Positions 15,912 through 46,651 of a stretch of DNA of 54,002 nucleotides are shown piece after piece. The translations under genes and the position numbers were made by a program. Below the pieces are notes generated by a model. That model saw nothing but the letters and a program-made list of their open reading frames with translations. It made no database searches and was not told where the DNA came from. The stretch comes from Thiotrichales bacterium. GTDB taxonomy: Bacteria > Pseudomonadota > Gammaproteobacteria > UWMA-0217. How positions within the stretch are numbered: position 1 is the first letter of the stretch; every line of letters starts with the position of its first letter. Location: assembly GCA_024763135.1 (NCBI GenBank), contig JANTGD010000001.1, positions 1-54,002 of the forward strand, written 5' to 3'.

Positions 15912-15925
15912 GTCAGGCACACCAA

Positions 15926-24183: not shown

Positions 24184-24651
24184 CTAAAAGGGAATATCGT
24201 CATCGAAATCATCGGCAACCGGCTGTGCAGGTGAGCTTTTCTTCTCCGGCACCGGCTCACTCGTACCCGCCGAGGGCGGAGGCGCGTCATAACCCATCTC
24301 CCGTCCACCGCCGCGCGAATCCAACATTTGCATCTCATTGGCAACGATCTCGGTGGTGTAACGATCCTGCCCATCCTGTCCCTGCCACTTACGTGTCCGC
24401 AGGCTTCCTTCTACATATACTTTGGAGCCTTTGCGCAGATACTCACCTGCGATTTCCGCGAGCCGGTTGAAGAACACCACGCGATGCCATTCGGTGCGCT
24501 CCTGATCCTGCCCGGTATTCTTGTCTTTCCACGTTTCCGAGGTGGCAACCGTAATATTGGTGACCGCGCCCCCACTTGGCATGTAACGCGTCTCCGGGTC
24601 TCTGCCAAGATTACCGATTAAAATCACCTTGTTAATGCCTCTCGTGGCCAT
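24184..24651 (-). CDS. ssb: Single-stranded DNA-binding protein
   Basis: 155 aa. N-terminal OB fold ([15 protein letters not shown]), Gly/Pro-rich linker and the acidic tip DDFDDDIPF. Confidence 0.96.
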
Positions 24652-24739
24652 ATTCTCTCAACCTCTCAGTACCAATATGCTGGACGTTTTGTTCTCTCGA
24701 AAAGAGACGTATAGTAGCAGATTTTGTGACCCTCATCCG

Positions 24740-27643
24740 ATGGAAAAGATTATTATTCGCGGCGCCAGAACCCACAATCTGAAGAATATCGATTTGGAGC
24801 TGCCACGCAACAAGCTGATTGTCATCACTGGGCTTTCTGGCTCAGGCAAATCTTCACTGGCATTCGACACCATCTATGCGGAAGGGCAACGTCGTTACGT
24901 CGAGTCGCTTTCGGCCTATGCGCGTCAATTCCTTTCAATGATGGAAAAGCCCGATCTCGATCATATCGAGGGACTGTCTCCCGCCATCTCGATCGAACAA
25001 AAAACAACCTCTCACAATCCTCGCTCAACTGTGGGCACAATCACCGAAATTTACGACTATTTGCGTTTGCTCTTCGCGCGTGCAGGCATCCCACGCTGTC
25101 CGGAACACCACACCAATCTCGAAGCCCAAACCGTCAGCCAAATGGTCGACCAAGTGCTGGCGCTGCCGGAAGGCACCCGGCTCATGTTGCTTGCTCCCAT
25201 TGTGAATGACCGCAAAGGAGAGCATGTGCAGCTGCTGGAACGACTCAAGGCGCAAGGGTTTATCCGGGCACGCATCGACGGTGAGGTCTATGATCTGGAT
25301 GCCCCGCCAAAACTCGACCTGCGCCGCAAACACAGCATCGATGTCGTGGTAGACCGCTTCAAAGTGCGTGATGATCTTCAGCTGCGGCTGGCCGAATCCT
25401 TTGAAACGGCGCTGCAATTGGCGGACGGTATCGCAAAAATCGGCTTTATGGACGATCCCGCTAAGCAAGAACTTGTATTCTCCTCCAGCTTTTCCTGCCC
25501 GTACTGCGGCTACTCATTACCAGAGCTTGAACCACGGATTTTTTCCTTTAACAGCCCAGCCGGCGCCTGTCCGACTTGCGATGGACTTGGGGTCATCCAG
25601 AGATTCGACCCCGAGCGGGTGATTACACACCCCGACAAGTCCCTTTCCGAGGGCGCCATCCGAGGGTGGGACCACCGCAACAGCTACTATTTTCAAATGA
25701 TTCAGTCATTGGCCGAGCACTATGGATTTGACCTGGACAAACCCTTCAAGCGGCTGGCAAAGCGCCATCGAGAAATGATCCTCTATGGCTCAAAAGGTGA
25801 AAGAATCGAGTTTACTTACACCAATGATCGCGGCGCAAGTTATACCCGCAGCCATGCCTTCGAGGGCGTCATTCCAAACATGCAGCGCCGCTTTCGCGAT
25901 ACTGAGTCGGCCGCTGTGCGCGAGGAATTATCCAAATACATGGTCACCACCCGCTGCCCGGACTGTGAAGGCAGTCGGTTGAAGCTGTCTTCCAGAAATG
26001 TCTTCGTCGCGGAACAGTCATTGCCCGCACTGACCGCATTACCCATCAGTGAAGTCTATGCTTTTTTCGACAGCCTCGCATTGCAAGGTCAGCGTGCCAA
26101 GATCGCGGAAAAAATCGTGCGAGAAATCAGCGAGCGTTTGAAGTTTCTCGTCAATGTGGGGCTGCAGTATCTGGCCTTGGATCGGGCCTCCGATACGCTA
26201 TCGGGTGGTGAAGCGCAGCGTATCCGACTGGCAAGCCAGATTGGTGCAGGGCTTGTGGGAGTCATGTATGTGCTAGACGAACCGTCGATTGGCTTGCATC
26301 AACGAGACAACCACCGCTTGCTGGAAACACTCAAACGACTGCGGGATCTCGGCAATACAGTGATCGTCGTTGAACACGACGAGGACGCTATTCGTCACGC
26401 CGATCACGTTGTGGATATTGGACCCGGCGCCGGCGTACATGGTGGGCATATTGTCGCTCAGGGCACGCCCAAACAAATCGAAAGAAATAGTACGTCGCTG
26501 ACCGGCCAGTACCTCTCCAAACGGCGCACTATTGAAATCCCTGCACAACGCTGGGTAGCATCGGACAGTAAGACACTCAAGATTCTGGGCGCCAGCGGCA
26601 ATAACCTCAAATCCGTCGACCTGGAAATTCCAGTCGGCCTGTTCACCTGCATCACTGGCGTCTCTGGCTCCGGTAAATCTACGCTGGTCAACGACACGCT
26701 GCTGCGTGCCGTTGCGCGCCATTTGCACAATGCTGCAGAAGAACCTGCCAGTTATACCGCCATCGAGGGGCTGGATTACTTTGACAAAATCGTTGCCATC
26801 GACCAAAGCCCCATTGGTCGCACACCTCGCTCCAACCCGGCAACCTACACAGGCCTGTTCACCCCGATCAGAGAGCTCTTTGCAGGTACGCCCGAGGCGC
26901 GCTCTCGCGGATATAAACCTGGCCGTTTCAGTTTCAATGTCAAAGGAGGACGCTGTGAAGCCTGCCAGGGCGACGGTGTCATCAAAGTGGAAATGCACTT
27001 TCTACCCGACATCTACGTCCCCTGCGATGTCTGTGGCGGAAAGCGTTACAATCGAGAAACCCTTGATGTGCACTACAAGGGAAAAAACATACATGAAGTA
27101 TTAGAGATGTCCGTGGAAGAGGCACTGCAGTTTTTCGATGCTGTCCCCGTACTGGCAAGAAAGTTGCAGACCTTGATGGACGTTGGCTTGTCTTACATCA
27201 CTCTGGGGCAGGCAGCTACCACGCTCTCCGGTGGTGAAGCCCAGCGCGTGAAACTAGCCCGCGAACTTTCTAAGCGCGAAACCGGGCGTACACTTTATAT
27301 CCTTGATGAGCCAACCACCGGATTACACTTTCACGATGTGGAGCAATTGCTCAGAGTCCTGCATCGTTTGCGCGATGGTGGAAATACCGTCGTGGTCATT
27401 GAGCACAATCTTGATGTGATAAAAACCAGCGACTGGGTCGTTGATCTGGGGCCGGAGGGCGGCTCTGGCGGAGGTGAAATCATTGCCACCGGTACCCCAG
27501 AACACATTGCGCATACGCCGACGTCGCATACAGGACGCTTTCTCAAACCACTGCTGTTTGACGAGGCTCAACCTGGCCCGGCAAAAGCGAAAAAGAAAAG
27601 CACACGCAAACGGCGCAAAACGGCTCGATCAAACTCCGCCTGA
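24740..27643 (+). CDS. uvrA: Excinuclease ABC subunit A
   Basis: Two ABC modules ([14 protein letters not shown] and [11 protein letters not shown]), zinc-finger CxxC pairs and LSGGEAQR signatures. Start assigned to the internal ATG at 24740 ([17 protein letters not shown]) instead of the track start at 24629, which overlaps ssb. Confidence 0.95.
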
Positions 27644-28132
27644 ATGCACGATCTCGTAGTAGATCTTTTCCAGCTCAGCCTTATGCTTGGTCTCCTCATT
27701 CGCCAGAAAAGTGAACAAATCCTTGATCGGACCAGGTTCCGCTGATTCTGCCAGACTGGTGTACTGCTGCATCGCAATATGCTCACGCCCCAAAGCGTAT
27801 TGCAATACGGCCTGATCATCTGGATTTTCGCCTAGATCTGGCAGGTGTACCGCATCAGAAAAGCGATGATCAGAGGCCGGCGTTTCAATCGCTTTTTCAA
27901 CCTCTTTTTCGAGCTCAGGATTTTCGGCCAGCGAGCTGAACAAATCATAGTGTTCCTGCTCTTCCTCCGCTAACTCCTCAACCAGATACCGAATCCGCTT
28001 ACTGACTTTGGGCGCTAAGTCGGTATAGAAATCACGCGCAGCACGCTCAAACTCAGTTGCGACTTTGAGGATGTCCTTCAGCGTTTTTTGAGATTTGATT
28101 CTTGCATAACTTTCACTTTCACCTTCACTCAT
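27629..28132 (-). CDS. Ferritin-like / rubrerythrin-family diiron protein without a rubredoxin domain
   Basis: Four-helix pattern with E...ExxH twice ([27 protein letters not shown]). Start placed at MSEGES. The 3' end overlaps the uvrA 3' end by 15 nt, convergently. Confidence 0.65.
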
Positions 28133-28377
28133 GCGCAATCCTCCAAGCATATACGGCAGACAAAGCGGACCAGACCGGCGCTTTACACAGGGTATTTGGT
28201 AACTATTCAGCGAGCGGGCGAATCATGAAGTAAAACTGCTCATATTGCTTCTGAAATTTGTCCGATCAAGGCGAAAAATGTGAGTTTACAAATGTAAATA
28301 ACCATTTTTAAACGTGGAGCTGGCGCATTTCAGAGGATAGCTGCGTAGTTACGGTATTTTTTTTGGCTACATCCTTA

Positions 28378-28682
28378 ACTAGTACCTCGTCCAGTTTAAG
28401 GAAGCTTCGATTATTTCAGGCGCGAGCAGATTGTGGTGAAAAATCGCCCAGTTCAAGGCGCGGATCGCACGGAATAGCTGGCTATTGCGAAGATCCGCAA
28501 CGAACAAGTGGGCGATTTTGCACCGTAATCTGCCGTGTTACGAATTGATCAAAGCCTCTTAATATGACGGAGTCAGTTGCAGTGCTTGACAAGGACGCTG
28601 CCATTGCCTGCGCACTGCGTATTGATATACGGCATCAACAACAGCCCTGAGCCCGTCTTTTTAAGCTAGACGATGTACTAGT
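28378..28682. repeat. Repeat family A, copy A2: internally deleted and interrupted by a family B element
   Basis: The copy reads ACTAGTACCTCGTCCAGT, then the B element, then TATGACGGAGTCAGTTGCAGTGCTTGACAAGGACGCTGCCATTGCCTGCGCACTGCG...CCCGTCTTTTTAAGCTAGACGATGTACTAGT. The ends and right half match A1 at 4301-4570. Confidence 0.7.
28396..28562. mobile_element. Repeat family B, copy B3 (167 bp), nested inside A2
   Basis: Runs TTAAGGAAGCTTCGATTATTTC ... GAATTGATCAAAGCCTCTTAA. It sits at the position where intact A1 reads AGCTTAAAATGACGG, and TTAA is present on both sides of the insert. Confidence 0.8.
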
Positions 28683-28854
28683 GTAGTGTTTCGACGGATT
28701 ATGGCTAAGCCCTGGCCTGTACGATTCGAAGTATAACCAGAAACTTTATGTTTCTCGGACAACCTCAAATAGTTTCATAAAGATTCGAGTGGATGGCGCG
28801 CCTCAATTTCACGAGAGTTGCATCCGAATCTATTTCGACGAGGTATCAGAAGAT

Positions 28855-30690
28855 TCAGACTTCATGCAGATCCTGAGTTGCCAAACAAGCGTCGATACTC
28901 GCTGCCACGCGATGCCCATCAGCCACGGCGTGCACCACATCGGGACCATTAACACAATCTCCCGCGGACCACAGCCAAGGTTCAGAAGTCCGACCTGCTT
29001 CATCGACCTTCAAGCGTCCACGATTCCACTCCAACGCTTCGGTCAGATCTTCGCCGAGTAGAGACACATCCGCCATTTGACCGATGGCCTCAACCACCAT
29101 TTCACCCTCATGAAACTGTTCATCTGAACTATCGTACTGAGGTGCAAACCGATGCTGCTCATCGAAAATAGACAGAACACGCCACGTACACAATCCGTTG
29201 AGCCGCCCCTGATCATCAATGCGACACGCTTGGGGGCCCCGACTATCAAGTATCGTCACGCCTTCCTCCAGAGCCTCTTTCACTTCGACTGGATCCGCCA
29301 AAAACTGATCCCTGGGTTCCAGCGCTGTCAGCGTAATCTGAACCTCGCCATAGGTTTGCTTCTGTAAGCGTGCCAGAGACCGAGCAATATCCATGGCGAC
29401 GTTTCCACCGCCAATGACAACTGCACTCTTCGGAATGTCAAAGGGTTCTCGCAGCGTAATCATGCGCAGCAAATCTACTGCGGCCTTGACCTGGATATGC
29501 TCAGACCCAGGAATCCGAGTCGATCGCCCCAACTGCAGCCCAATGGCAAGTACGACGGCATCGAATTCATCGCGCAACGAACTCATGCTGCGATCTTTCC
29601 CAATCTCACATTGGTAATGAATTTTCACGCCAAGCGAGGTTATCACATCAATGTCCTGATCCAATTTGTCATAGGGCAAACGGTATTCAGGAATTCCAAA
29701 CCGAGGCATGCCGCCAGCTTTTTCCAAGCGTTCGAATACTTCCACTTCATGCCCTTTCTTGACAAGGTCGAAGGCCGCAGTCAAACCCGCAGGACCCGAG
29801 CCAATCACTGCGATCCGTTTCCCCGTCGGGACCTGGACCCGGCCTTCCGCAGCAATCTGCTTCACCCGCTCATGATCCACCGCATCCATGGCATACCGTT
29901 TTAACCAGCGAATCGCAATGGGTTCCCCACGGTGCCCAATTGAACATGCCGTCTCGCAGCGATGTGTACATACGCGCCCGCAAACATGAGAAAACGGGTT
30001 GCTTTGATACATCCATCGGACGGCATCTTCCGGGCGGCCTTCCCATATCGAACGAATATACTCCGGTGCATCCATATGGGTGGGGCAGGCATCATGACAC
30101 ATACCACATTGCACGCAGCGAGAAGCTTCCAACAAGGCGTGCTGCGCATCATAGCCCGCAACGATTTCATCGAAATTGTCACTGCGACTTTGTGGCTCCA
30201 ACTCTGGCATTTCCTCACGCTCCAAATCCACCAGATCGGTGGTTGGCGTCTTGGTCCAACCTTCGGGATACGGGGTGCCATGCATACCATCGGCGCTTGG
30301 CAGCATGAAATAACTGTCGAGCTGATCCTCCGTACAGACATGCACATATTCGCGAGACAGACTAATCGCAGCAGTAGGACAGACATCCACACACAAAGCA
30401 CACCAACAACAGCGACCATAATCAATTGCCGGACGCAGTGGGCGAATGCCCTTGATGGGGTCCTCTTTGGCCTCCGGGACATGCACCATCGTAATGGCTG
30501 CATTATCACAAACTTTCTGACAAGTCCCGCAACCGATACAGGACTCCCAATCGTTCAAATGAAACCCGCGATAAGTCTCCGTAGCCGGTCGCGGCCCAAG
30601 CGGTTCAGTAACCGGTTTGCGTGCAAAGAACTGCAGCGTCTTGAGGGGATTTAAAATACTCCCCTTGTCTTTGTATTTGATATCTGACAT
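28855..30690 (-). CDS. Fusion protein: NuoI/MbhN-type 2x[4Fe-4S] ferredoxin domain plus GltD/SudA-like NAD(P)H-dependent FAD oxidoreductase
   Basis: N-terminus has CIGCGTCQKVCD and CCWCALCVDVCP. It is followed by the GltD N-terminal Fe-S region (CVQCGMCHDACP, NPFSHVCGRVCTHRCETAC), the FAD motif VIGSGPAGLTAA and the NAD(P)H motif VIGGGNVAMDIA. Start placed at the ATG at 30690 (MSDIKYK), sharing 1 nt with the upstream stop (TGATG). Confidence 0.8.
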   Translation of the reverse strand: MSDIKYKDKGSILNPLKTLQFFARKPVTEPLGPRPATETYRGFHLNDWESCIGCGTCQKVCDNAAITMVHVPEAKEDPIKGIRPLRPAIDYGRCCWCALCVDVCPTAAISLSREYVHVCTEDQLDSYFMLPSADGMHGTPYPEGWTKTPTTDLVDLEREEMPELEPQSRSDNFDEIVAGYDAQHALLEASRCVQCGMCHDACPTHMDAPEYIRSIWEGRPEDAVRWMYQSNPFSHVCGRVCTHRCETACSIGHRGEPIAIRWLKRYAMDAVDHERVKQIAAEGRVQVPTGKRIAVIGSGPAGLTAAFDLVKKGHEVEVFERLEKAGGMPRFGIPEYRLPYDKLDQDIDVITSLGVKIHYQCEIGKDRSMSSLRDEFDAVVLAIGLQLGRSTRIPGSEHIQVKAAVDLLRMITLREPFDIPKSAVVIGGGNVAMDIARSLARLQKQTYGEVQITLTALEPRDQFLADPVEVKEALEEGVTILDSRGPQACRIDDQGRLNGLCTWRVLSIFDEQHRFAPQYDSSDEQFHEGEMVVEAIGQMADVSLLGEDLTEALEWNRGRLKVDEAGRTSEPWLWSAGDCVNGPDVVHAVADGHRVAASIDACLATQDLHEV

Positions 30691-31832
30691 CAGCGATCCA
30701 CCTCTGGCGGGCACGCATCCAGTGAAAACATAATTTGCGCCACATCTTCGAGCCGCGCACCCTCAGCAAGCCATTCCAAAACCTGGACCGCATGCATGGA
30801 CGACGGCCCGCGGACATGCACTCGATAGGGTTTGTCCCCTCCATTTGAAACAGCATAATAGGCGAGCTCACCCTTGGAGGATTCAACTCGCGCATAGGTT
30901 TCACCTGCCGGTACATTCCAGGCCAGAGGGTTGGGGATCGGCGCCCGGACCGGCCCACCAATCGATGGCAGACGCTCAATAACCTGCCTCAAAATACGAA
31001 AACTTTGCTTCAATTCGGCACGCCGCACCATGGCGCGCGCCCACGCGTCACCTGCCGCTTCGGTAGGCACATCAAATTCGAGCTGTTCATACACCAAATA
31101 AGGATCATCCCGACGTACATCGAACGCCAGCCCGGTAGCCCGAAGATTCGGACCGGTAACACCCCACTCCAGCGCTTGCTCCTGAGTCATTGCGCCCACA
31201 TCCTTAGCACGCGTAATGAACACCTGGTTGGTAAACAAAAGATTGTCATAATCTGGCAGCCGAGATTCGAGGTAATCCAACGTCTGGCTGACCTGCTCCA
31301 AGAATCCTGGTGGAACATCCCGCCGCGTACCCCCTGGGATGTTGAAAATATGATAGACGCGGCCGCCCGTGAGGGCCTCGAATAAATCGAGTATCAGATC
31401 TCGGTCGGCAATTCCCCAATAGCTGGTCGTATACATGCCAGTGGTCGCAGCATGCCCGCCAAAGGTGAACAAATGCGCTGCAATTCGCGAAAGTTCGAGC
31501 TGCAGCACCCGCAGCCACTGAGCGCGTTCTGGCACTTCCAAGCCACACAAGTCCTCTACCGCCATAGAATAGGTGACTTCCATGGGCACGGGATCCGGTA
31601 CACAGATGCGCGGAACCAGGGCAATATTCTGGATCCACAAACGACCCTCCATCAGCTTTTCGAAACCCCGATGGAGATAGCCGCCATCGGCTTTTCCAGC
31701 GAGCACGACATCTCCATGCAATTTGAGTTTGAAGGCATAATTACCTTCGATCCCGGGATGATTGGGTCCGATAAAAAGTTCGTATTCGTTGCTCGGTGGA
31801 TGGCTCTGCGCCTGATAGTTTTCGGGCCTCAT
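30690..31832 (-). CDS. NuoD / group-4 [NiFe]-hydrogenase large-subunit homolog with incomplete metal ligands (MbxL/Ehr-like)
   Basis: Contains GPNHPGIEG, GYLHRGFEKL and NIPGG blocks. The L1 position reads PRICVPDP where hydrogenases have RxCGxC. The C-terminus reads SLDACPPEVDR where hydrogenases have DPCxxCxxR. Start at the ATG at 31832 gives an ATGA overlap with the upstream stop. Confidence 0.8.
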   Translation of the reverse strand: MRPENYQAQSHPPSNEYELFIGPNHPGIEGNYAFKLKLHGDVVLAGKADGGYLHRGFEKLMEGRLWIQNIALVPRICVPDPVPMEVTYSMAVEDLCGLEVPERAQWLRVLQLELSRIAAHLFTFGGHAATTGMYTTSYWGIADRDLILDLFEALTGGRVYHIFNIPGGTRRDVPPGFLEQVSQTLDYLESRLPDYDNLLFTNQVFITRAKDVGAMTQEQALEWGVTGPNLRATGLAFDVRRDDPYLVYEQLEFDVPTEAAGDAWARAMVRRAELKQSFRILRQVIERLPSIGGPVRAPIPNPLAWNVPAGETYARVESSKGELAYYAVSNGGDKPYRVHVRGPSSMHAVQVLEWLAEGARLEDVAQIMFSLDACPPEVDR

Positions 31833-32392
31833 CGACGCACCTCCTCGGGCCGGATCGCCACGCCACCCCCCTCTTCCTCCAGCTCCTTGAGCCAATCCGG
31901 GTGATAAGACTGCCAGTTGAAGGTTTCCTGTACGTAGGCTTCCGCATCAAAATCCTTACGCATGGGGGGTGGGCCATCCCACTCAGTGAGAATGAATTTT
32001 TCCATATGCGGACTGCCCTCGAAATAGACGCCGAACATTTCAAAAATGTCCCGTTCAAAAAAAGCCGCAGGCTTATACAGATCGTACACCGAAATATATC
32101 GAGCTGTTTCACGAGGAATACGGGTATGCGCCGAAACTAAATGATTAGATTCGTAAGACCATAGGTGGTAAACCAGCTCAAACTCGTTGTCTTCAATCCA
32201 ATCGACACAGCTGATGGCCGAAAGATGCACGTAGGAAGCCCGGCCTTTCAAAAGCTCCAATAAACCAGGCAGTGCCTCACGCGTCACATCGATGCGTACC
32301 CGGCGCGGGCTGGTCTGCCGATACTCGAGGGACTCGAGTTCGCGTAAAATGGTAACCAGGTGCGTGTCTAATTCGCGCTCAGTCATGCTCAA
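31829..32392 (-). CDS. NuoC / hydrogenase 30-kDa subunit homolog (MbhK/MbxK-like)
   Basis: 187 aa. Complex I 30-kDa-like core (LSAISCVDW..FELVYHLWS..ERDIFEMFGVYFEG). Confidence 0.8.
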   Translation of the reverse strand: MSMTERELDTHLVTILRELESLEYRQTSPRRVRIDVTREALPGLLELLKGRASYVHLSAISCVDWIEDNEFELVYHLWSYESNHLVSAHTRIPRETARYISVYDLYKPAAFFERDIFEMFGVYFEGSPHMEKFILTEWDGPPPMRKDFDAEAYVQETFNWQSYHPDWLKELEEEGGGVAIRPEEVRR

Positions 32393-32395
32393 AAC

Positions 32396-33103
32396 TCACT
32401 TTAAGCGCAGTTTATGCGCGACAAGGGGCTGCTGATACTGCTGCAGAATACGCGTATGTTCACCTTCTGTCTCCGGACCGGCCAAACCGTAATGTTGCGC
32501 CTGACCGATGACATCAGTGGGTGTTTGCCAGTTGTCACCAAACAGATGCTGCTGGTTACCCAGGTAATAGTCATAGCGTTGATAGTAATCCTTCCACGGC
32601 TCCGTCTCGCCCGACTGGATATTGGCCATCAACGCGCGCATCCCTTCGATGACGGCCTCTGGTCTCGGCATGCAGCCCGCGATGTATAAATCCACCGGCA
32701 GATATTCACTAAGCTTTTTGGCCGTGGCGTAGCTTTGCCAGTACATCCCGCCATTGACCGTACAAGAGCAAATGCCAATCACATACTTAGGGGAGGGCAT
32801 CTGTTCATAAGTCAAAATAATGCGCTTCAGCGTCTTTACCGAAACATAGCCCGTTACCAATAGAATATCCGCCTGACGCGGCGTCACCATCGGTTGAATC
32901 CCCAAGCGCTCCATGTCAAAGCGTGAGGTCATGGCCGGAGGCAGCTCAATAGCGCCACAACCCGTACAATAGTGCAGCATGTACATAGAACGCGACTGCG
33001 CGAAGCGCACCAGCTCGTCGAAGACACCTGCCAAAGGATTGGTGCGCGCCTCCTCCGGTGCGTGTTTTTCGGTATGAATAGGAATTTTGCTCAGATCGCT
33101 CAT
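32396..33103 (-). CDS. NuoB / hydrogenase small-subunit homolog (MbhJ/MbxJ-like), [4Fe-4S]
   Basis: 235 aa. Cys motifs YCTGCGAIE, GICSCTVNGG and GCMPRPEA occupy the positions of the NuoB N2-cluster ligands. About 40 aa of N-terminal extension. Confidence 0.8.
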   Translation of the reverse strand: MSDLSKIPIHTEKHAPEEARTNPLAGVFDELVRFAQSRSMYMLHYCTGCGAIELPPAMTSRFDMERLGIQPMVTPRQADILLVTGYVSVKTLKRIILTYEQMPSPKYVIGICSCTVNGGMYWQSYATAKKLSEYLPVDLYIAGCMPRPEAVIEGMRALMANIQSGETEPWKDYYQRYDYYLGNQQHLFGDNWQTPTDVIGQAQHYGLAGPETEGEHTRILQQYQQPLVAHKLRLK

Positions 33104-33115
33104 CGGCTTACCTCT

Positions 33116-34006
33116 TTAATACATAACGAATGCGATGCCCAGCAATCCAGCCAATACTGGCCACTTCCACATTAGGCGTAGCATATCTTCAGTGCGATAG
33201 CGGGGGAATGTAAAAGCAATCATCATGGGAATAGCAACAACCGCAAAAATCTTGATTAGAAAATCTAACCAATGGGTGCCCCCACCTAGAAACAAGGTCG
33301 TATACAGCACACCCGCGGTATACAGTTGGAAACACTGCATGACAAAAAGCCCGCCCATGTACTTACCGCCCATTTCCACCATTGGGCCGGTGGCAATTTC
33401 AGCGGGCGCCACATAGATCTCGAACGGCTGTTTACCCATCATGCCTTGGAGTGCAAACAGTCCAGCCAATGCCAACAGTGGCATTTCAAAGGCCCCCCAG
33501 CCTTGGGCCTGTTGCAGGCTGATCATCTCTGACAAATCCGTGGTGCCGTAATGCCAGGCCACACCAAAAATCACGATGACAAAAGGGATGTCATAGGCGA
33601 GCATGGCAGTCAAAGCACGAGAAATTCCGATCGATCCATTGGGATTAGCGCATTGCCCCACACCCAATGCCAACCCCAGCGAAGGAATCATAAGAAAATA
33701 AGTCAGCGTAATAATACCACCCTTGTCGCTCAGACCATCCATGCCCGGCACGGGTAGTAAGCTTTCCGCCGCCAAGTACCCACCCACGGCCATAATAATA
33801 CCGATGTCGTGAAGCAACCCATGCGAAACTTGCGTAGTCTTGCTGTAGAATTTGATAATGTCGATTAGAGGTTGAAAAAACGGCGGACCAACACGCCGTT
33901 GTAATTTCGCCGCAATTTTGCGCAGCATCAACACCATAAAAAGTCCGATCACAAAAGCCACAATCGGCATTAAGATAATATCCGCGATCCGCTTTCCAAT
34001 CTCCAT
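33116..34006 (-). CDS. NuoH / MbhM-like membrane subunit
   Basis: Polytopic, with a NuoH-like RRVGPPFFQPLIDIIKF block. Start placed at the internal ATG at 34006 (MEIGKR), sharing 1 nt with the upstream stop (TAATG). Confidence 0.78.
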   Translation of the reverse strand: MEIGKRIADIILMPIVAFVIGLFMVLMLRKIAAKLQRRVGPPFFQPLIDIIKFYSKTTQVSHGLLHDIGIIMAVGGYLAAESLLPVPGMDGLSDKGGIITLTYFLMIPSLGLALGVGQCANPNGSIGISRALTAMLAYDIPFVIVIFGVAWHYGTTDLSEMISLQQAQGWGAFEMPLLALAGLFALQGMMGKQPFEIYVAPAEIATGPMVEMGGKYMGGLFVMQCFQLYTAGVLYTTLFLGGGTHWLDFLIKIFAVVAIPMMIAFTFPRYRTEDMLRLMWKWPVLAGLLGIAFVMY

Positions 34007-35874
34007 TAGCTCACCATCCAAAGCACAATCACGGCCATCGCCAGCATGGGTAAGGCGGGTTGCATTAAACGATAGAAGGTCGCTGACCACTGCGCCAAAA
34101 AGCTCGCCAGTGACGCCACTACGGATTCAAACCACAGAAAACTGCCTCGATACCAGTGCCCGATTCTATGCATCAAGCCCGCGTAGAAATGGTCGGAATA
34201 GTGGTAACGCACATCGGCACTGAGGAAATGTCCACCGGCATAATTATCAAGTTGATGGACCGGCTCTGAACGTCCCGTTGCATAGAACAGCAAAGCACTG
34301 ACCCCGAAACCGGCAAATAACACCAGGACAAGCATTATCATGTCCAACCCCCCATGTGCATCAGCCACACCACCGAGTGTGTGTGGTAGCACCGGCAAGC
34401 CTACTGCTGCCTGCACTGCAGCTACCCAATCCAACACGATCCCAGGCATAAACCCAGTAAGAAAAATGATCAATGCAAGTACCATCATGGGAATGACCAT
34501 ACTCCAGGGGGCCTCTTGCACGGGTTCATGCTCCAGACGCAGCTGCCCAAGAAACGTATTATGAATGAGCTTGTATACCGATAGAATCGTTCCAAGTGTA
34601 CCGATGACCGAGGCCACAAATAATAACGGCATGCCCTCGCTCAGCAACGAACGATACACCATCCATTTAGATACAAAACCATTCATCGGGGGGATACCCG
34701 CTAAACCAATAATGCCCACAAGCATCGCCACAAAAGTCAGGGGCATGCGGGTAAACAAGCCACCAAGTTTATTGAGATCGGCAGTCCCGGTGCGATACAC
34801 CACAGCAAATACCGCCAATAGCAGTACTGCTTGGTTGGTGGCGTAATTAAAGATATGCAGAATACCGCCCGCAGAACCCAATGCGCTTGCCGATAGAATC
34901 CCCATCAGCATGTAGCCACCTTGACCAATGCCGTGCCACGCCAACAACCTGCGCGCATCATTCTGCTTCAGTGCCGTATAGGTGGGCAAGATAATGGTAA
35001 AAGCCGCTATCCACATCAATACATCGCGCAGACTCAGGAATGTTAAAGGGATGTGAACTTCAATCAGCCTGATCAAACCAATCAACTGAACCCAGACCAG
35101 CATCATTCCATAGAGTCCCATTCGGGAAGAAATAGCGCCTAGAAAAGCCATACCTGGCCCGGGCGTTTCTGCATATGCGCCCGCCTGCCAAAGGTGAAAG
35201 GGTAAAATCCCCATTTTTACGGCGAAACCCGCCCCAAAGAGCACGGTAAGCAGAGTAATCAGTCCTACCGACCACTGATCGACCGCGGCCATAAAATCCG
35301 CATAATTCAATGATCCAGTCAAATGGAACACGATACCCAAGGCCGCCAGCATTGACATAGCACCGGCCGTGGCATAGGTGATATAGCGCAAAGACCATTT
35401 CAGAGCGGGACCAGCTGCTAACGCCATAAGTAGAAAGCTGGCCCAACTCACCAGTTCCCAGGCGATAAATAAGGATAAAAAGTCACCGCTAGCCAGCAAC
35501 AACAACATCGTAAACACGTTGAGCGCAAGTGCAAATTGAAGCCAACCAGGTGAGCGACCCGCTGCCCGATAGTGATCACTCCAGGCCCCAGTAGCATAGA
35601 CGCTGCTGACCAATCCAGCTCCTAGCGTAATTAAAGCGAAGTACCAGGACATTGCATCATAGCGCAAGACCAATGGTTGCCCGAACAAATCCCAGGCCAG
35701 CCCGGAAGTAACCGCCGGTGCACCGTAACCCAAAGGCGCCAACAAAAAGAGTACCAGAAGTTGTAGACCTAAACCCAACGAAGCAACATAACCTACCCAA
35801 CGCGTTCTGACTGTCGCCAAAGTAGCGATCAAGGTTCCTAATGCCGTTAACAATAGCGCGTCCAGTAGACTCAT
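34006..35874 (-). CDS. Antiporter-like subunit, MrpD/NuoL-family (second copy, MbxH-prime-like)
   Basis: 622 aa, about 16 or more predicted TM helices, proton-antiporter-M type blocks (FIAWELVSWASFLLM, WHGIGQGGYMLMG). Confidence 0.8.
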   Translation of the reverse strand: MSLLDALLLTALGTLIATLATVRTRWVGYVASLGLGLQLLVLFLLAPLGYGAPAVTSGLAWDLFGQPLVLRYDAMSWYFALITLGAGLVSSVYATGAWSDHYRAAGRSPGWLQFALALNVFTMLLLLASGDFLSLFIAWELVSWASFLLMALAAGPALKWSLRYITYATAGAMSMLAALGIVFHLTGSLNYADFMAAVDQWSVGLITLLTVLFGAGFAVKMGILPFHLWQAGAYAETPGPGMAFLGAISSRMGLYGMMLVWVQLIGLIRLIEVHIPLTFLSLRDVLMWIAAFTIILPTYTALKQNDARRLLAWHGIGQGGYMLMGILSASALGSAGGILHIFNYATNQAVLLLAVFAVVYRTGTADLNKLGGLFTRMPLTFVAMLVGIIGLAGIPPMNGFVSKWMVYRSLLSEGMPLLFVASVIGTLGTILSVYKLIHNTFLGQLRLEHEPVQEAPWSMVIPMMVLALIIFLTGFMPGIVLDWVAAVQAAVGLPVLPHTLGGVADAHGGLDMIMLVLVLFAGFGVSALLFYATGRSEPVHQLDNYAGGHFLSADVRYHYSDHFYAGLMHRIGHWYRGSFLWFESVVASLASFLAQWSATFYRLMQPALPMLAMAVIVLWMVS

Positions 35875-37334
35875 GGCAGCTCCCTCCCGGCACCAAGCAC
35901 CGTGGTGACATACAATTCTCGATCCGCCAGCTGGTCCGCTACTCCCGCCAGCCAGTTACCCACAGGTGTAATCATGACAGTAGCGATCAATAAAACAGCG
36001 CCGAGAATCAGTGACGGCCCCAGACTGCCGGCATCATGCACAGGCACTTTAGCGGACCGTGACTCTGAACCCGCTTTGAATAAGCCAAGTCCAAACCGAA
36101 ACAGATAGTTGGCTTCGAAAACCGTTGCCAGCAAAATAATGCCCGCGCCCGTCCAATATATCCAATTGTCCTGTCCGAGCAGACCGAGTAGCGTCATTAG
36201 TTTCGCCCAAAATCCAGGCAAAGGAGGGACACCAATCAAAGACAATGCAAACAAAATGAACAAGCCGGCAGCCCATGGTGATTTCCACCCCGCGCCGGCC
36301 AATCCGGCAAAGCCCCCAGACCATCGCTCGGCCAATACAAACAATGCGGGTTTGACAATAAGGTGATGCATGGCCACTGCGAGACCAGCGAAGAGTCCTG
36401 CTTGCCCAGGAATGGAAAACGCCATGAGCACCAACCCCAGCTGACCAATGGAAGAGAATGCCAGCATGCGTTCAAAGTCTTTTGCATGCCAGGCAGCCAG
36501 TTCGCCGAGTAATACGCCTAACGCTCCGATAACTAGCAGTAGCGTAAGGGCTTCAGGCTGAGGGAATAATAAGACCAGCAAGCGGATTATCACTATGATT
36601 GCGAGCTTCGAGATCAAGCCTGCCAGCAACGCAGATACTCTTTGCGAAGCCGTCGCGTACACTTCAGGAACCCAGATGTTAACGGGAAACAATTCCGCCT
36701 TCACACCAATCCCCAGCAGTATCAGCACAAACGCTGTGAGGCCCAAAGTATTATCCAGTGTGGTTGCCGAGAGCAGCGTTAAATGTGCGAGGTTGAGCGT
36801 TCCGGTTTGAGTATAGATGAGCGCGATTCCCGTGAGCGCCATCACGGTACCCATGCCACTGATGATGACGTAGCGCAATGTGGCTGCCAGTGCCGCACCT
36901 GTTTTTGGAGCGGCAACCAGTCCAAAGGAGGCCACCGAAACGAGTTCATAGAAAACGTAAAGATTAAACAGATCGCCCGAGAGCGCCATACCGGACGCGG
37001 CGGACACCATTAACAACATCAACGCAGCAACGCGGGCATCGCGCCAGGCTGCATGCGGCCACAATAACAATGCCAGCAAAGAGGTCGCCAACGCAAAAAC
37101 GAGTGCGAGTTGATCCAAATAGAAGGTGATGCCCAACGGAGGCTGAAAGCCACCCAGTTCGATATGACTGGGAACGCCCCCTGAATCTCGCCACAGTACA
37201 ATGACTACCAAACTCGTCAGTAGGAGTAATGCAGGCCCCAATAGCCTCCCTACCCACCCAACACTCCGTGCACCGACCGGCAAAAGAAAAGCCCCCAACA
37301 AGGGCAGCGCGACCACCAATGCGATAAGATTCAC
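35871..37334 (-). CDS. Antiporter-like subunit, MrpD/NuoM-family (MbxH-like)
   Basis: 487 aa polytopic protein with YVFYELVSVASFGLVA and FSSIGQLGLVLMAF blocks typical of MrpD/NuoM/NuoN. Confidence 0.8.
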   Translation of the reverse strand: MNLIALVVALPLLGAFLLPVGARSVGWVGRLLGPALLLLTSLVVIVLWRDSGGVPSHIELGGFQPPLGITFYLDQLALVFALATSLLALLLWPHAAWRDARVAALMLLMVSAASGMALSGDLFNLYVFYELVSVASFGLVAAPKTGAALAATLRYVIISGMGTVMALTGIALIYTQTGTLNLAHLTLLSATTLDNTLGLTAFVLILLGIGVKAELFPVNIWVPEVYATASQRVSALLAGLISKLAIIVIIRLLVLLFPQPEALTLLLVIGALGVLLGELAAWHAKDFERMLAFSSIGQLGLVLMAFSIPGQAGLFAGLAVAMHHLIVKPALFVLAERWSGGFAGLAGAGWKSPWAAGLFILFALSLIGVPPLPGFWAKLMTLLGLLGQDNWIYWTGAGIILLATVFEANYLFRFGLGLFKAGSESRSAKVPVHDAGSLGPSLILGAVLLIATVMITPVGNWLAGVADQLADRELYVTTVLGAGRELP

Positions 37335-37798
37335 GAGCGCCCCTCCTCTGCCGCAACCGTCGGCCCGATCACCTCTCTGCCCGAAGGCTCTTCTTGGCTT
37401 AGGTCTCCGGTCACACCAGCTTGAGCATCAATGTCCGCCTGCATGGCAGCACGAATCTCGTCGATATCCAGACTGTGGTAGGCCTCCTTGACTCGAATCG
37501 CCAAGCTGAGCGCCAAGGCCTGAATACCTACTCCGATGACGATCGCTGTCAACACCATCGCCTGAGGGACAGGATCCACCATCTGCTCTGGCCAGACACC
37601 CGCCACCATAATCGGGGCATGCCCATGCAACCGATATCCAGCGATGACCAGCATTAAGTTTGCACCTGCCTCTGCAATTGCTAAAGACAGAATGATGCGA
37701 AAGAGGTGCCGGCTCCAGATAATACCGACTAAACCAATTGCAATCAGACCAATCGCACCGGTATAGAGAATCCATTGAAGGTCGAACACCATACTCAT
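37331..37798 (-). CDS. MrpC / NuoK-like subunit (MbhG-like) with hydrophilic C-terminal tail
   Basis: 155 aa. Three TM helices with an AIAEAGANLMLV core, then an acidic tail of about 50 aa. Confidence 0.72.
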   Translation of the reverse strand: MSMVFDLQWILYTGAIGLIAIGLVGIIWSRHLFRIILSLAIAEAGANLMLVIAGYRLHGHAPIMVAGVWPEQMVDPVPQAMVLTAIVIGVGIQALALSLAIRVKEAYHSLDIDEIRAAMQADIDAQAGVTGDLSQEEPSGREVIGPTVAAEEGRS

Positions 37799-38481
37799 GT
37801 TTCACTACCCTCGTACACAAGATGCGCTAAAAGTCCCGCTAATTCCGCTCCCACTTTAAGCCCCAAAACGAGATACAAAATCGGTAATGAGCCGGCGGAG
37901 AGTAATTGCCCCGGGCTTCCCGTCCCAAACAGGGGTTGAAGAAACGCCCCGCCTTGAAACAGTGCGATCAGGCCAATTACAATAAATGCACTACCGGCCA
38001 AACCTTCTGTCACGGCCAAACCAAAGTGCCTGACCTGAATGCCCGGACGCGCCAGAAGGGGCAGAAAAAAAGCAGCCGCCAAAATGACGCCACCTTGAAA
38101 ACCACCCCCTGGCGTAAGGTGGCCATGCAGGATAATGTAAAATCCAATCACGAGCATGAGCGGAAAAAGTAGCTGTGTACTGATTCGTAACACGTTGCCC
38201 GCCGGCGCTTGGGCTTGACGCTTTCCACCGCGACGTTCCAATACGAGTCCCGCGACCAGCGAAGCAGTAAAGAGAATCGCAATTTCTCCCAAGGTATCAA
38301 TACCGCGATACCCTAAGACGACAGCCGTTACGATATTCGCCGTCCCTGTCGTTTCAGGCGCTTCCTGTAAAATGGCCTGACCCACTACCATAGGCGCTGC
38401 GCCTGGTTCGAATTCCGCAACGACCACCAGTAAGAAGAATGCCAATCCCGCAGCGAACAGTGGGCTCGTCAGATTTCTCAT
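37795..38481 (-). CDS. MbhE-plus-MnhB (MrpB)-like fused membrane subunit
   Basis: 228 aa. IVTAVVLGYRGIDTLGEIAILF (MbhE-type) followed by GHLTPGGGFQGGVILAAAF (MnhB-type). Confidence 0.72.
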   Translation of the reverse strand: MRNLTSPLFAAGLAFFLLVVVAEFEPGAAPMVVGQAILQEAPETTGTANIVTAVVLGYRGIDTLGEIAILFTASLVAGLVLERRGGKRQAQAPAGNVLRISTQLLFPLMLVIGFYIILHGHLTPGGGFQGGVILAAAFFLPLLARPGIQVRHFGLAVTEGLAGSAFIVIGLIALFQGGAFLQPLFGTGSPGQLLSAGSLPILYLVLGLKVGAELAGLLAHLVYEGSET

Positions 38482-38756
38482 CGATTTTTCTCACGTTCAT
38501 CTGTCGCGGACGCTGCGCCCGTCTGCGTTAAACCAAGGCGTCTTAGCGCCAAAGCCAAAATCAAACTCGACAAGCCGGCTCCAACTGCCGCTTCGGTCAT
38601 TGCAACATCCGGTGCTTTAAGGAGCAAAAACAGAACAGACAAAGCCAGCGAGACGACCGATGCTGCGGCAACCGCTGCCACGTGGTTATTAAAAAAGATT
38701 ACCGCCAACGCAGCCAGCAACATGACCACTACCAATAGACCGGTTATCCAAATCAT
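38478..38756 (-). CDS. MbhD-like small membrane subunit (MrpA C-terminal-domain homolog)
   Basis: 92 aa, three TM segments, APDVAMTEAAVGAGLSS block. Confidence 0.65.
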   Translation of the reverse strand: MIWITGLLVVVMLLAALAVIFFNNHVAAVAAASVVSLALSVLFLLLKAPDVAMTEAAVGAGLSSLILALALRRLGLTQTGAASATDEREKNR

Positions 38757-39061
38757 GGCGCTTTACCCTCGGATCGATCCGCTTGCCAGGGTGCCACACC
38801 GGTGACATGCAAGGCACGCGCCAGCGTCGAAGACCCCACAGGACTTGTGAATAACACGAAACCCGCGATGCAGACCAGCTTGGCCCACCAATGTGGATAG
38901 AGCATACCAACCCCGATCAACATGGCGATCACACCCAAAGTGGCTGCTTTTGTCCCGGCCTGAATGCGATTGTAAGTATCTGGCATGCGGACCAAACCTA
39001 AGGCAGCCAAAAATGCAAACAATGCACCTGCAAGCAAAAATAAATCAGCGAAAATTCTCAA
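38753..39061 (-). CDS. MrpG/MnhG-like subunit
   Basis: 102 aa. LGLVRMPDTYNRIQAGTKAATLG signature of PhaG/MnhG. Confidence 0.8.
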   Translation of the reverse strand: MRIFADLFLLAGALFAFLAALGLVRMPDTYNRIQAGTKAATLGVIAMLIGVGMLYPHWWAKLVCIAGFVLFTSPVGSSTLARALHVTGVAPWQADRSEGKAP

Positions 39062-39324
39062 GAATGTTCTCCTTCAATCGCACGTGCTATCGCCACCACC
39101 CCGACAAATGCCAATGCTCCGTACACCAAAGCCACATCCAGATAGACAGGATTCGAGAACCATGCAGCAACGGCCACCAATCCGGCAGTAATTATGACGG
39201 ATAACGTATCGGCGCCGACCACTCGGTCCAATGCGCTCGGCCCCCTGATGAAACGGAAGAATGCCAATGCAATGGCCATCCCTAAAATAATGGCAGCGAG
39301 TACTTCAAGTAGATTCAAACTCAT
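39058..39324 (-). CDS. MrpF/MnhF-like subunit
   Basis: 88 aa. FRFIRGPSALDRVVGADTLS signature. Confidence 0.8.
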   Translation of the reverse strand: MSLNLLEVLAAIILGMAIALAFFRFIRGPSALDRVVGADTLSVIITAGLVAVAAWFSNPVYLDVALVYGALAFVGVVAIARAIEGEHS

Positions 39325-39830
39325 TTCAAAAAGCCCGATATCCAGCGCTCGAATCCCCCTGCGACAGCCTCGGTGACTGCCTGGCGATCCGCTTCTTCTG
39401 GTACATTGATCCAGTGAACTAAGAGGCGCTCCTCTTGCAGCTCGACGGTGAGTGTGCCGGGGGTGAGCGTAATACTGTTTGCCAACAACATGCGCCCCAG
39501 CGACGAGGTCAAGCCCGTGCGCACTTCGACGAAGCCAGGACGAATGGGCAAAGATGGGCTGAGCACCCTCCCCGCAAGATCAAAATTGGCTCGAAGCAGC
39601 GCGTAGAAAAAGTAAACGAGATAAGCGATAAGAAACAGAAAGGCGCGGGGACTGAGAATCAAACCATTGAATACCCCCAATTGCTGACGCGAGACCGCAC
39701 TGACCACAAGCGCCACGAGCAGGCCGGCGAGCAGTTCTTCAGTCGCCAAAGAACCAGTGAGAAGGACCCAGAGCAATAAGCTCGAAAGGAATACAATTGA
39801 GTAGCTGCGTAGGCTTACACGCTGTTCCAT
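39321..39830 (-). CDS. MrpE/MnhE-like subunit (first gene of the operon)
   Basis: 169 aa. ANFDLAGRVLSP...LANSITLTPGTLTV MnhE blocks. Confidence 0.78.
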   Translation of the reverse strand: MEQRVSLRSYSIVFLSSLLLWVLLTGSLATEELLAGLLVALVVSAVSRQQLGVFNGLILSPRAFLFLIAYLVYFFYALLRANFDLAGRVLSPSLPIRPGFVEVRTGLTSSLGRMLLANSITLTPGTLTVELQEERLLVHWINVPEEADRQAVTEAVAGGFERWISGFLK

Positions 39831-43465: not shown

Positions 43466-43498
43466 ATATCGCCAATCCTCAAAAATTATTACGCCGTA

Positions 43499-44119: not shown

Positions 44120-44139
44120 AATATCTCTGTTGCTCCGTT

Positions 44140-44529
44140 TTACACTCGACGTTTCTTAGGAGGCCGACATCCATTATGAGGAATAGGCGTAACGTCAGTG
44201 ATATTGGTAATGCGATAACCAACATTGTTCAATGATCTAACGGCTGACTCTCTGCCAGGCCCAGGCCCTTTTACTCGAACTTCGAGATTCTTAAGCCCGT
44301 ATTCTTTTGCAGCCTCTCCAGCGCGCTCTGCCGCAACCTGTGCCGCAAAGGGCGTACTTTTTCGTGAGCCACGAAACCCCGAGCCCCCGGAGGTCGCCCA
44401 AGATAACGCGTTACCTTGACGATCGGTTATTGTAATAATAGTGTTATTGAAGGATGCATACACGTGCGCGATGCCGTCAGTTACAACTTTTTTTACCTTC
44501 TTTTTTGAGCGAGCGGGTGCCTTAGCCAT
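44140..44529 (-). CDS. rpsK: 30S ribosomal protein S11
   Basis: 129 aa. [18 protein letters not shown] and the C-terminal [13 protein letters not shown]. Confidence 0.98.
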
Positions 44530-44549
44530 ACTGGATTCCTAACCTTACT

Positions 44550-46649: not shown

Positions 46650-46651
46650 GC

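Follow-up and report, generated by a model that had tools for sequence, protein, structure and literature searches.

An iron-sulfur flavoprotein fused to an MbsN-type subunit in a proteobacterial MBS-type operon: a candidate NADH module for an Mrp-linked sulfane-sulfur complex

The best-understood relative of the system described here is MBS, the sulfane-sulfur reductase of Pyrococcus furiosus. Its large subunit has lost two of the four NiFe cysteines and kept C85 and C385 (PMC7684303, PMC8165549), a shortened CxxC loop in MbsJ leaves the proximal [4Fe-4S] cluster with three cysteine ligands and a catalytic iron (PMC7684303), and cysteines of the CxxCxxCxxxC type in MbsN ligate the distal and medial clusters (PMC8165549). 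Related bacterial operons have been noted as well: Degli Esposti described in 2015 “mbx-like” operons with a gltD-like subunit, often terminated by rubrerythrin, and assigned that flavoprotein subunit as the site of NAD(P)+ reduction (PMC4758237); Mitchell et al. reported in 2024 a “putative Mrp-Mbx complex” of Endoriftia that is coexpressed with the reductive tricarboxylic acid (rTCA) cycle and whose direction they stated to be unknown (PMC11636981); and in Thermotoga maritima mbxA is induced 4.4-fold by elemental sulfur (S0), with ferredoxin modeled as the donor (PMC9431562). Here, we analyze a stretch of 54,002 nucleotides from a Thiotrichales bacterium (contig JANTGD010000001.1; hereafter, the window), which holds 13 codirectional genes at positions 28855 to 39830 on the minus strand, among them a gene for a 611-residue protein that joins an MbsN/NuoI-like domain to an NfnB/GltD-like flavoprotein. 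With moderate confidence, and arguing from sequence, we read the encoded assembly as a near-equilibrium, ion-coupled NADH:sulfane-sulfur oxidoreductase, in which the fusion protein would cap the peripheral arm of an Mrp-linked bacterial complex of the MBS/Mbx type.

Translation of positions 28855 to 30690 (minus strand) yields 611 codons and zero internal stops, as reported in an earlier note made from the letters alone, and all six motifs quoted there are present: the MbsN-type cluster motifs CIGCGTCQKVCD (residues 51 to 62) and CCWCALCVDVCP (residues 93 to 104), the GltD-type Fe-S motifs CVQCGMCHDACP (residues 192 to 203) and CGRVCTHRCETAC (residues 237 to 249), and the dinucleotide motifs VIGSGPAGLTAA (residues 295 to 306) and VIGGGNVAMDIA (residues 425 to 436). 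The one-base overlap that the note had seen with the large-subunit stop is borne out by the junction ...CGC TGATG TCA..., in which the ATG of the fusion and the TGA of the NuoD/MbsL-like gene have base 30690 in common. The same overlap is implied in many relatives, where tblastn matches to MbsL end at coordinate 9998 and the fusion begins at 10001. These relatives come from a genome scan that took one genome per species and returned at least 80 loci with verified near-full-length fusions, save a few shortened by contig ends; in them, uninterrupted tblastn matches extend over approximately residues 1 to 607. No frameshift was found on comparison with more than 100 clusters of 604- to 624-residue homologs at 98 to 100% query coverage, and the continuous frame together with these full-length homologs rules out a frameshift or split-gene artifact. 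The fusion of a NuoI-type with a GltD-type protein is real and was correctly parsed. Its parts are as follows.

28855..30690, minus strand: 611-residue fusion protein (MbsN/NuoI-like domain, linker, and NfnB/GltD-like flavoprotein); stop codon at 28855-28857
30355..30690, minus strand: MbsN/NuoI-type 2x[4Fe-4S] domain, residues 1 to 112, with C51, C54, C57, and C104 plus C61, C94, C97, and C100
30235..30354, minus strand: conserved interdomain linker, residues 113 to 152, with motifs kept in 68 sequences
29869..30234, minus strand: GltD/DPD-type N-terminal Fe-S domain (Fer4_20), residues 153 to 274, with C192, C195, C198, and C202 plus C237, C241, C245, and C249
28858..29868, minus strand: flavin adenine dinucleotide (FAD; G297-x-G299-x-x-G302) and NAD(H) (G427-G-G-N-V-A432) Rossmann domains, residues 275 to 611

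Domain annotation, which the earlier note had proposed as a check, places Pfam Fer4/Fer4_7 at residues 47 to 110, Fer4_20 (PF14691; E value, 4.6e-30) at residues 170 to 274, and Pyr_redox_2 (PF07992; E value, 8.7e-27) at residues 292 to 588, while NuoI-type NCBIfam models cover residues 5 to 127 and GltD/NfnB-type models (TIGR01317/01318) run from about residue 153 to the C terminus. The best match of the N-terminal domain in the Protein Data Bank (PDB) is MbsN of P. furiosus MBS (6u8y_N; 76.7 bits, 1e-20), against 44.6 bits for MbhN and no more than about 43 bits for any NuoI, and its cysteine spacing (CxxCxxCxxxC ... CxxCxxCxxxC) is the ligand pattern of MbsN (C61/64/67/106 and C71/96/99/102). 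The C-terminal ~460 residues match NfnABC, NfnB, NfnI-L, Xfn, GltD, and DPD in sequence, and their predicted fold superposes on NfnI-L (5jca_L; template modeling [TM] score of 0.88, root mean square deviation of 2.5 Å), NfnB (TM score of 0.86), and GltD (6s6s_E; TM score of 0.84), so that sequence and predicted fold both uphold the original domain assignment. Among 14 representatives that share 32 to 49% identity with the window protein, no variation occurs at any of the 16 cluster cysteines, at the FAD glycines, or at the NAD-site residues; in a wider alignment of 68 homologs from Proteobacteria, Thermotogota, and other phyla, this holds again for the 16 cysteines and for G297, G299, G302, G427, G429, and D434.

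A linker does separate the two halves, but it comprises approximately 40 residues (113 to 152) rather than the 60 first estimated, since homology to the GltD family starts near residue 153. The motifs SYFxLP..GxH and SDLLDLER are kept in it across the 68 sequences. An AlphaFold2 model of the fusion has a predicted local distance difference test (pLDDT) value of 89 and a predicted TM score (pTM) of 0.84, with values of about 74 to 86 in the linker and a dip to 63 to 69 at residues 161 to 180. Because the linker is conserved and is modeled with intermediate confidence within a model of this pTM, it is predicted to be no floppy tether, and both halves would form one body. Neither sequence nor fold comparison found a solved structure carrying the same fusion.

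The flavoprotein half belongs with NfnB, NfnI-L, Xfn, and GltD (4YLF_B, 5JCA_L, 5VJ7_A, and 6S6S_E), with which it shares the 2x[4Fe-4S] Fer4_20 domain and the FAD/NAD(P)H Rossmann fold (TM scores of 0.84 to 0.88; 29 to 33% identity). It departs from this group in its N-terminal MbsN-type domain, in its partner, which is a membrane complex and not NfnA or GltB, and in one motif of the nucleotide site. In NfnB, Y310-R311-R312 holds the 2'-phosphate of NADPH, and in DsrL enzymes kinetics have linked the presence of YRR to NADP(H) and its absence to NAD(H) (PMC7596348). This phosphate-binding motif is missing from the fusion protein, where A456-L457-E458 aligns to the YRR position of the NADP-type relatives 9bov_A and 9n5u_A; E458 is invariant and Leu-Glu (xLE) is kept in all 68 aligned homologs (Proteobacteria, Thermotogota including Thermotoga, and several uncultured lineages). 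Because ALE/xLE replaces YRR, and given the NfnB and DsrL precedents, the window protein and its clade are predicted to use probably NADH rather than NADPH. The pyridine-nucleotide site named in the earlier note as an NAD(P)H site thus stands, with its cofactor probably narrowed to NADH. DsrL is also a close parallel in a broader sense, as an NfnB/GltD-like flavoprotein with a ferredoxin domain that links NAD(P)(H) to a sulfur-metabolizing Fe-S enzyme in sulfur oxidizers and whose cofactor choice tracks the YRR motif (PMC7596348). However, the ferredoxin domain of DsrL is C-terminal and its partner is soluble DsrAB, whereas the domain of the window fusion is N-terminal and of the MbsN/NuoI type and its partner is an ion-translocating membrane complex.

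The genes upstream of the fusion encode this membrane complex.

30690..31832, minus strand: MbsL-like (NuoD-like) catalytic subunit, 380 residues from ATG, with RICVPDP and DACPPEVDR kept
31829..32392, minus strand: MbsK-like (NuoC-like) subunit
32396..33103, minus strand: MbsJ-like (NuoB-like) subunit, which carries the proximal cluster; motif YCTGCGAIELPP
33116..34009, minus strand: MbsM-like (NuoH-like) membrane anchor
34006..35874, minus strand: MbsH'-like antiporter-type subunit, 622 residues (NF006419, 6.7e-114)
35871..37334, minus strand: MbsH-like/MrpD-type antiporter subunit
37331..39830, minus strand: six Mrp-type small membrane subunit genes, given below in transcription order
39321..39830, minus strand: MnhE
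39058..39324, minus strand: MrpF
38753..39061, minus strand: MnhG
38478..38756, minus strand: MbhD/DUF4040
37795..38481, minus strand: MnhB
37331..37798, minus strand: MnhC

Judged by its sequences, the complex is an ortholog of the P. furiosus MBS sulfane-sulfur reductase and neither a hydrogenase nor a complex I-type quinone reductase, because its MbsL- and MbsJ-like subunits match those of MBS, the vestigial cysteines and the short loop are kept, and the quinone ligands are lost. The MbsL-like protein matches 6u8y_L over its full length with 403 bits (1e-119), compared with 256 bits for Thermus Nqo4 and 139 bits for MbhL. Its RICVPDP and DACPPEVDR align to RICVPEP and DNCPPDIDR of 6u8y_L and are the equivalents of MbsL C85 and C385; with only two of the four cysteines remaining and MbhL a poor match, a [NiFe] hydrogenase is ruled out. 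A quinone site is ruled out as well, since the Nqo4 quinone ligands H38 and Y87 (T. thermophilus numbering) are aligned to Glu and Val, as in MbsL. The MbsJ-like protein matches 6u8y_J (1.3e-64) over 167 residues without a gap, with its YCTGCGAIELPP opposite FCTGCGGIEMPP; its loop reads CTGC(G), not the tandem CC of cluster N2, and with this short loop it would hold a proximal cluster ligated by three cysteines.

MBS and the window operon thus share the order of 13 subunits (Mrp-type small subunits, two antiporter-like subunits, and homologs of M, J, K, L, and N), MbsL, MbsJ, and MbsN rank first among PDB matches for their counterparts, and the vestigial NiFe cysteine pair and the short CxxC loop are kept. 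The main difference lies in MbsN, which in P. furiosus is a stand-alone, ferredoxin-fed protein of 208 residues and here is the N terminus of the 611-residue protein, followed by a FAD/NAD(H) flavoprotein of ~460 residues. The window operon also adds a gene for a diiron rubrerythrin-like protein, and the host is a mesophilic proteobacterium rather than a hyperthermophilic archaeon. Two details of the subunits may be added. The MbsJ-like protein has 235 residues, compared with 192 in P. furiosus MbsJ, with ~25 extra residues at the N terminus and ~40 at the C terminus, outside the aligned region. The MbsL-like open reading frame (ORF) was called mechanically from a TTG (30690-31895; 401 residues), overlapping the MbsK-like gene; its homologs begin at the ATG at 31832 (MRPENYQ..., 380 residues), which abuts the MbsK stop and is likely the true start.

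The added gene is conserved as the last one of the operon.

27629..28150, minus strand: rubrerythrin-like diiron four-helix-bundle protein, 173 residues (PF02915, 2.1e-12)

Its ligands E35, E64, H67, E123, E152/153, and H156 (E...ExxH...E...ExxH) are kept in 78 to 81 of 82 sequences, and the protein has no cysteine at all, hence no rubredoxin-type Fe(Cys)4 domain, which makes it erythrin-like and diiron-only. In nearly all proteobacterial loci that reach far enough, this gene lies directly 3' of the fusion, and it overlaps the fusion stop in L083, the closest relative at 83% identity. Triple fusions of NuoI/MbsN, GltD, and rubrerythrin, with 746 to 774 residues and a C-terminal extension homologous to the rubrerythrin-like protein, occur in at least 20 clusters. 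These patterns point to the diiron protein as a dedicated partner of the fusion. Spirochaetales and uncultured lineages carry the triple fusions, which there close the same 13-gene operon (P0121, P0371-P0374, P0384, P0402, and others; L082, 10001-12250), with diiron ligands degenerate in some of them (P0374 and P0384). In the window, a spacer of 704 bp (28151-28854) separates fusion and rubrerythrin-like gene, compared with usually 0 to 150 bp in relatives. It holds no ORF longer than 61 amino acids but an imperfect 28-nucleotide inverted repeat (28426-28453/28506-28533), and Rfam with permissive settings gave no match in it; it may be the remnant of an insertion.

The same fusion in related gene clusters, whose search the earlier note had suggested, turned out to be widespread. 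Fusions in the 80 or more loci are 54 to 73% identical to the window protein, and their hosts are overwhelmingly sulfur oxidizers or sulfur storers: tubeworm and lucinid endosymbionts, Sedimenticola, Thiocapsa, Thiohalocapsa, Thiogranum, Thiomargarita, Thiothrix, Parasulfuritortus, Thiobacillaceae, Gallionellaceae, and some Rhodobacteraceae and Magnetococcales. The 471 genomes hit by a pattern scan are not used as a count of fusions, as patterns in the NuoI domain may catch ordinary NuoI/MbsN. With the window proteins as tblastn queries, about 70 of 80 loci prove colinear in the order MnhE-F-G-MbhD-MnhB-C-MbsH-H'-M-J-K-L-fusion-Rbr (Rbr, rubrerythrin-like gene), and the full architecture appears in 13 clusters of a library of 50%-identity representatives. 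Thermosipho, candidate division WOR-3, Hydrothermae, and Spirochaetaceae supplied named members outside Proteobacteria, and a search seeded with Thermosipho added T. maritima MSB8, Fervidobacterium, Petrotoga, Mesotoga, Haliovirga, and others. The 13 genes and their order are identical in the Thermotoga mbx-like operon, and the order recurs in an uncultured lineage; Thermotoga also has the NuoI-GltD fusion, with 47% identity and xLE, but no rubrerythrin gene. Because nothing else is conserved in the flanks, the operon appears to be a self-contained unit: clustering of flanking ORFs around the 80 loci, with an eye to ferredoxin and sulfurtransferase genes, found none common to more than six loci.

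Proteobacteria carry two clades of the complex. The second, divergent one (clade B; L055 to L080, e.g., L055 from Thiothrix caldifontis and L078 from Tropicimonas isoalkanivorans) has fusions that are 54 to 60% identical to the window protein, MbsL ~47%, and MbsM ~31%, the membrane subunits having diverged; in its MbsL-like protein, the C-terminal vestigial Cys is replaced by Tyr (SLHTYPPEIER). Both clades occur together in at least one genome, a Thiodiazotropha metagenome-assembled genome (MAG; L014 and L061), which suggests that they represent functionally distinct paralogous complexes.

The fusion as such is one more member of a widespread family that had already been noted. It matches NCBIfam NF010590 (PRK13984, “putative oxidoreductase”) from end to end (residues 9 to 606 to positions 8 to 609 of 611; E value, 2.4e-239), although its 795.6 bits fall short of the curated equivalog cutoff of 946, meaning the same architecture below equivalog level. 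The architecture is found in T. maritima and many sulfur oxidizers and was described in 2015 (PMC4758237), where NuoI was called “substituted”; the NuoI/MbsN domain is in fact retained. The statement that no characterized example exists does hold, in that the literature search found no biochemical characterization of the fusion, with subscription-only papers (e.g., Schut 2013 and Marreiros 2013) outside its reach. What goes beyond the earlier note is the xLE cofactor signature, the diiron partner, the question of which way electrons flow, and the two clades.

We infer from sequence the substrate, the ion, the preferred cofactor, the route and direction of the electrons, and what the rubrerythrin-like protein does, and they are worded accordingly in what follows. 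In the proposed mechanism, the ferredoxin-accepting MbsN subunit would be fused at the tip of the arm to an iron-sulfur flavoprotein of the NfnB/GltD type. NADH would deliver a hydride to FAD, from which electrons would pass via the two GltD-type [4Fe-4S] clusters, then the two MbsN-type clusters, and then the MBS-type proximal cluster of the MbsJ-like subunit to sulfane sulfur (polysulfide or persulfide) as the acceptor in the MbsL/J/M chamber, and the Mrp-like arm would couple this reaction to the translocation of H+/Na+. The rubrerythrin-like partner would probably take electrons from the flavoprotein and scavenge O2 or H2O2 in the vicinity of the exposed cluster. A pyridine-nucleotide site that would be wired via four [4Fe-4S] clusters into an Mrp-type complex is the natural reading of the 16 invariant cysteines and the dinucleotide motifs, in agreement with the earlier note, which had recognized the Mrp-coupled arm, had left the MBS-type sulfane-sulfur site and the diiron partner unidentified, and had presumed the direction.

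With potentials of -320 mV for NAD+/NADH and of about -260 to -270 mV for polysulfide or S0/HS-, the span from NADH to polysulfide is ~50 to 60 mV, or ~10 to 12 kJ per 2 e-. For comparison, a review of these complexes gives 12 kJ for MBH and 42 kJ for ferredoxin-driven MBS (PMC8165549). Since the NADH and polysulfide potentials are nearly equal, the complex should be readily reversible and able to support some ion translocation, and its direction in vivo should be set by the NADH/NAD+ ratio, the sulfur species, and the ion-motive force. For the fermentative Thermotogota, NADH oxidation with S0 reduction would be the sensible direction, and the induction by S0 in T. maritima indirectly supports a putative sulfane-sulfur reductase activity coupled to ion translocation, assigned by homology. 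In sulfur oxidizers, both anaerobic reduction of stored sulfur and gradient-driven reduction of NAD+ are plausible. It is tempting to go one step further and propose, as a tentative and rather unlikely reading, that in sulfur-storing oxidizers a reversible ion-coupled NADH:sulfane-sulfur oxidoreductase lies behind two unassigned activities, with the always-linked diiron protein as a built-in O2/H2O2 guard or a second exit for flavin electrons. If this was true, the first activity would be anaerobic respiration of stored S0 with NADH, and the second would be formation of NADH straight from sulfide or persulfide, driven by the ion-motive force, for ~10 kJ per 2 e- where the route via quinone and reverse complex I takes ~80 kJ.

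Several points weigh against an NADH:sulfane-sulfur oxidoreductase. Both vestigial cysteines are dispensable for catalysis in P. furiosus (PMC7684303), and their conservation is for that reason weak evidence on the substrate. YRR is present in 5 of 14 more distant representatives, which suggests that cofactor use varies within the wider family. Two antiporter-like pumps and an Mrp module look overbuilt for ~10 kJ per 2 e-. Published proposals, PMC4758237 among them, take ferredoxin and NAD(P)+ to be the substrates, and the Endoriftia complex is coexpressed with an rTCA cycle that depends on ferredoxin (PMC11636981). Moreover, in three loci of large sulfur bacteria (L046, L047 [Thiomargarita], and L052, ~10001 to 12300 in each; Thiotrichaceae, Thiomargarita, and an unclassified gammaproteobacterium), the fusion and its rubrerythrin-like partner form a pair without mbs genes within 10 kb, so that either the operon is split in these bacteria or the pair is able to act alone.

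Part of this evidence is shared by explanations that keep the same proteins and change what they do. The path could run in the opposite direction, with ion-motive force driving electrons to FAD from the MbsJ/L site, where sulfide, persulfide, or polysulfide would supply them, so that the fusion would be an NAD+ reductase (an output module) and NADH would cost ~10 kJ per 2 e- instead of the detour through quinone and reverse complex I. We consider this unlikely, with several points in its favor: the reaction is near equilibrium by potentials of general knowledge, the hosts are mostly sulfur-oxidizing autotrophs in need of NADH for CO2 fixation, the related DsrL-1A of sulfur oxidizers, which has no YRR, works with NAD(H) and kinetically favors NAD+ reduction (PMC7596348), and Degli Esposti had assigned the subunit as a site of NAD(P)+ reduction (PMC4758237). 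The earlier term “input module” presumes a direction, to which this published proposal and the DsrL precedent run counter. However, the Thermotogota, S0-reducing fermenters with the same architecture and xLE and with an S0-induced operon, most plausibly oxidize NADH. We also know of no sulfide-oxidizing activity for any MBS, which again speaks against the reversed path. Leaving sulfur out altogether, the complex would be an Rnf-like, ion-translocating ferredoxin:NAD(P)+ oxidoreductase that reduces NAD(P)+ at the GltD-like module or, in reverse, makes reduced ferredoxin for the rTCA cycle or nitrogenase. Mbx-like complexes of Thermotogota and Proteobacteria have been credited with this function in the literature, and it would fit the coexpression in Endoriftia (PMC11636981), but we judge it improbable. 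The docking site of ferredoxin in MBS and MBH is the distal cluster of the N subunit, the end of the wire at which the flavoprotein sits (PMC7684303, PMC8165549), and because both dock at the same tip, electrons would skip the MbsJ/L/M junction, where this family couples redox chemistry to ion movement, and the MBS-type catalytic-site features are nevertheless kept. The idea is also older than the proof of Mbx as a sulfane reductase (PMC7684303), and no ferredoxin gene is conserved in the flanks of the 80 loci.

The diiron protein invites two further explanations. Flavoprotein and rubrerythrin-like protein might constitute a self-sufficient NADH:peroxide (or O2) oxidoreductase, with the link to the membrane complex protective or secondary. 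Theirs is the tightest linkage of all: nearly all proteobacterial loci have the two genes side by side or overlapping, and at least 20 clusters have them fused; the diiron ligands are conserved, the pair stands without neighboring mbs genes in the three loci above, and another NCBIfam family, PRK12775, joins GltD to ferritin domains. Even so, we regard it as very unlikely, given that the Thermotoga fusion sits in an mbx operon without rubrerythrin, that the MbsN-type domain is retained and conserved everywhere and the start of the fusion is translationally coupled to mbsL, and that the three loci derive from fragmented MAGs whose mbs genes may lie elsewhere. Flavin-based electron bifurcation, in which an NfnB-like FAD would split the electron pair of NADH between the high-potential diiron protein and the low-potential Fe-S chain, is entirely speculative and receives hardly any credence from us. 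The best structural matches are indeed the bifurcating NfnI-L (TM score of 0.88) and NfnB (0.86), and most lineages have a second redox partner, alongside or fused; nonbifurcating GltD, however, fits nearly as well (0.84), an NfnA-like partner is absent, and Thermotoga lacks the diiron protein. Scarcely more credible is a simplified NADH:quinone oxidoreductase, i.e., complex I with an alternative N-module. NCBIfam does name the large subunit NuoD (NF004739; 438 bits, cutoff of 360) and scores its neighbors as NuoB, NuoC, and NuoH, but the head-group ligands H38/Y87 are replaced by Glu/Val, the NuoB-like subunit has the MBS CxxC loop and not the tandem CC of N2, MbsL and MbsJ score far above the complex I subunits, and the membrane arm, which includes MnhE, F, G, and B subunits, belongs to the Mrp/MBS type. 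The earlier comparison with the N-module (NuoE, NuoF, and NuoG) is apt in that the fusion would likewise be a pyridine-nucleotide dehydrogenase feeding an Fe-S chain to a NuoB-type cluster; the flavoproteins are unrelated, one with the flavin mononucleotide-binding NuoF fold and the other with the FAD-binding GltD fold. The resemblance is functional only: no protein of the cluster matches NuoE, NuoF, or NuoG models, and the terminal acceptor site is of the MBS type, not a quinone site.

If an NADH:sulfane-sulfur oxidoreductase is indeed encoded here, a complex I relative would be wired between NADH and sulfur by a flavoprotein unrelated to NuoF, a case of natural module swapping in the evolution of respiratory complexes. 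The hosts are ecologically dominant (tubeworm and lucinid symbionts, Sedimenticola, Thiomargarita, and Thiothrix), and for them the complex would offer both a route to NADH and an enzyme that reduces stored sulfur under anoxia. Metabolic models of T. maritima (PMC9431562) and Endoriftia (PMC11636981) give ferredoxin as the donor and overlook the fused NAD(H) module; correcting the assigned donor alters the predicted energy yields. This value lies in the family as a whole, to which the window adds one member.

As for the surroundings, promoter and terminator scans of the operon gave matches no more frequent than in shuffled sequence, and Rfam had no match in the whole window. In one of the stand-alone loci (L047), the pair is preceded by an ORF whose N terminus, judged by eye, resembles a transcriptional activator. 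Housekeeping genes flank the window operon (42467-53764 and 24184-27643), with a ribosomal protein/SecY/RpoA cluster on one side and UvrA and SSB on the other, and the window contains no sulfur-oxidation genes. At approximately 8000 to 16000 it includes a low-GC island (36 to 37% GC, compared with ~53% elsewhere) with genes for an O-antigen-type ABC exporter (ABC-2 permease and Wzt-like ATPase), glycosyltransferases, and WsaF-like proteins, adjoined by rml genes; this island is probably a horizontally acquired polysaccharide cluster.

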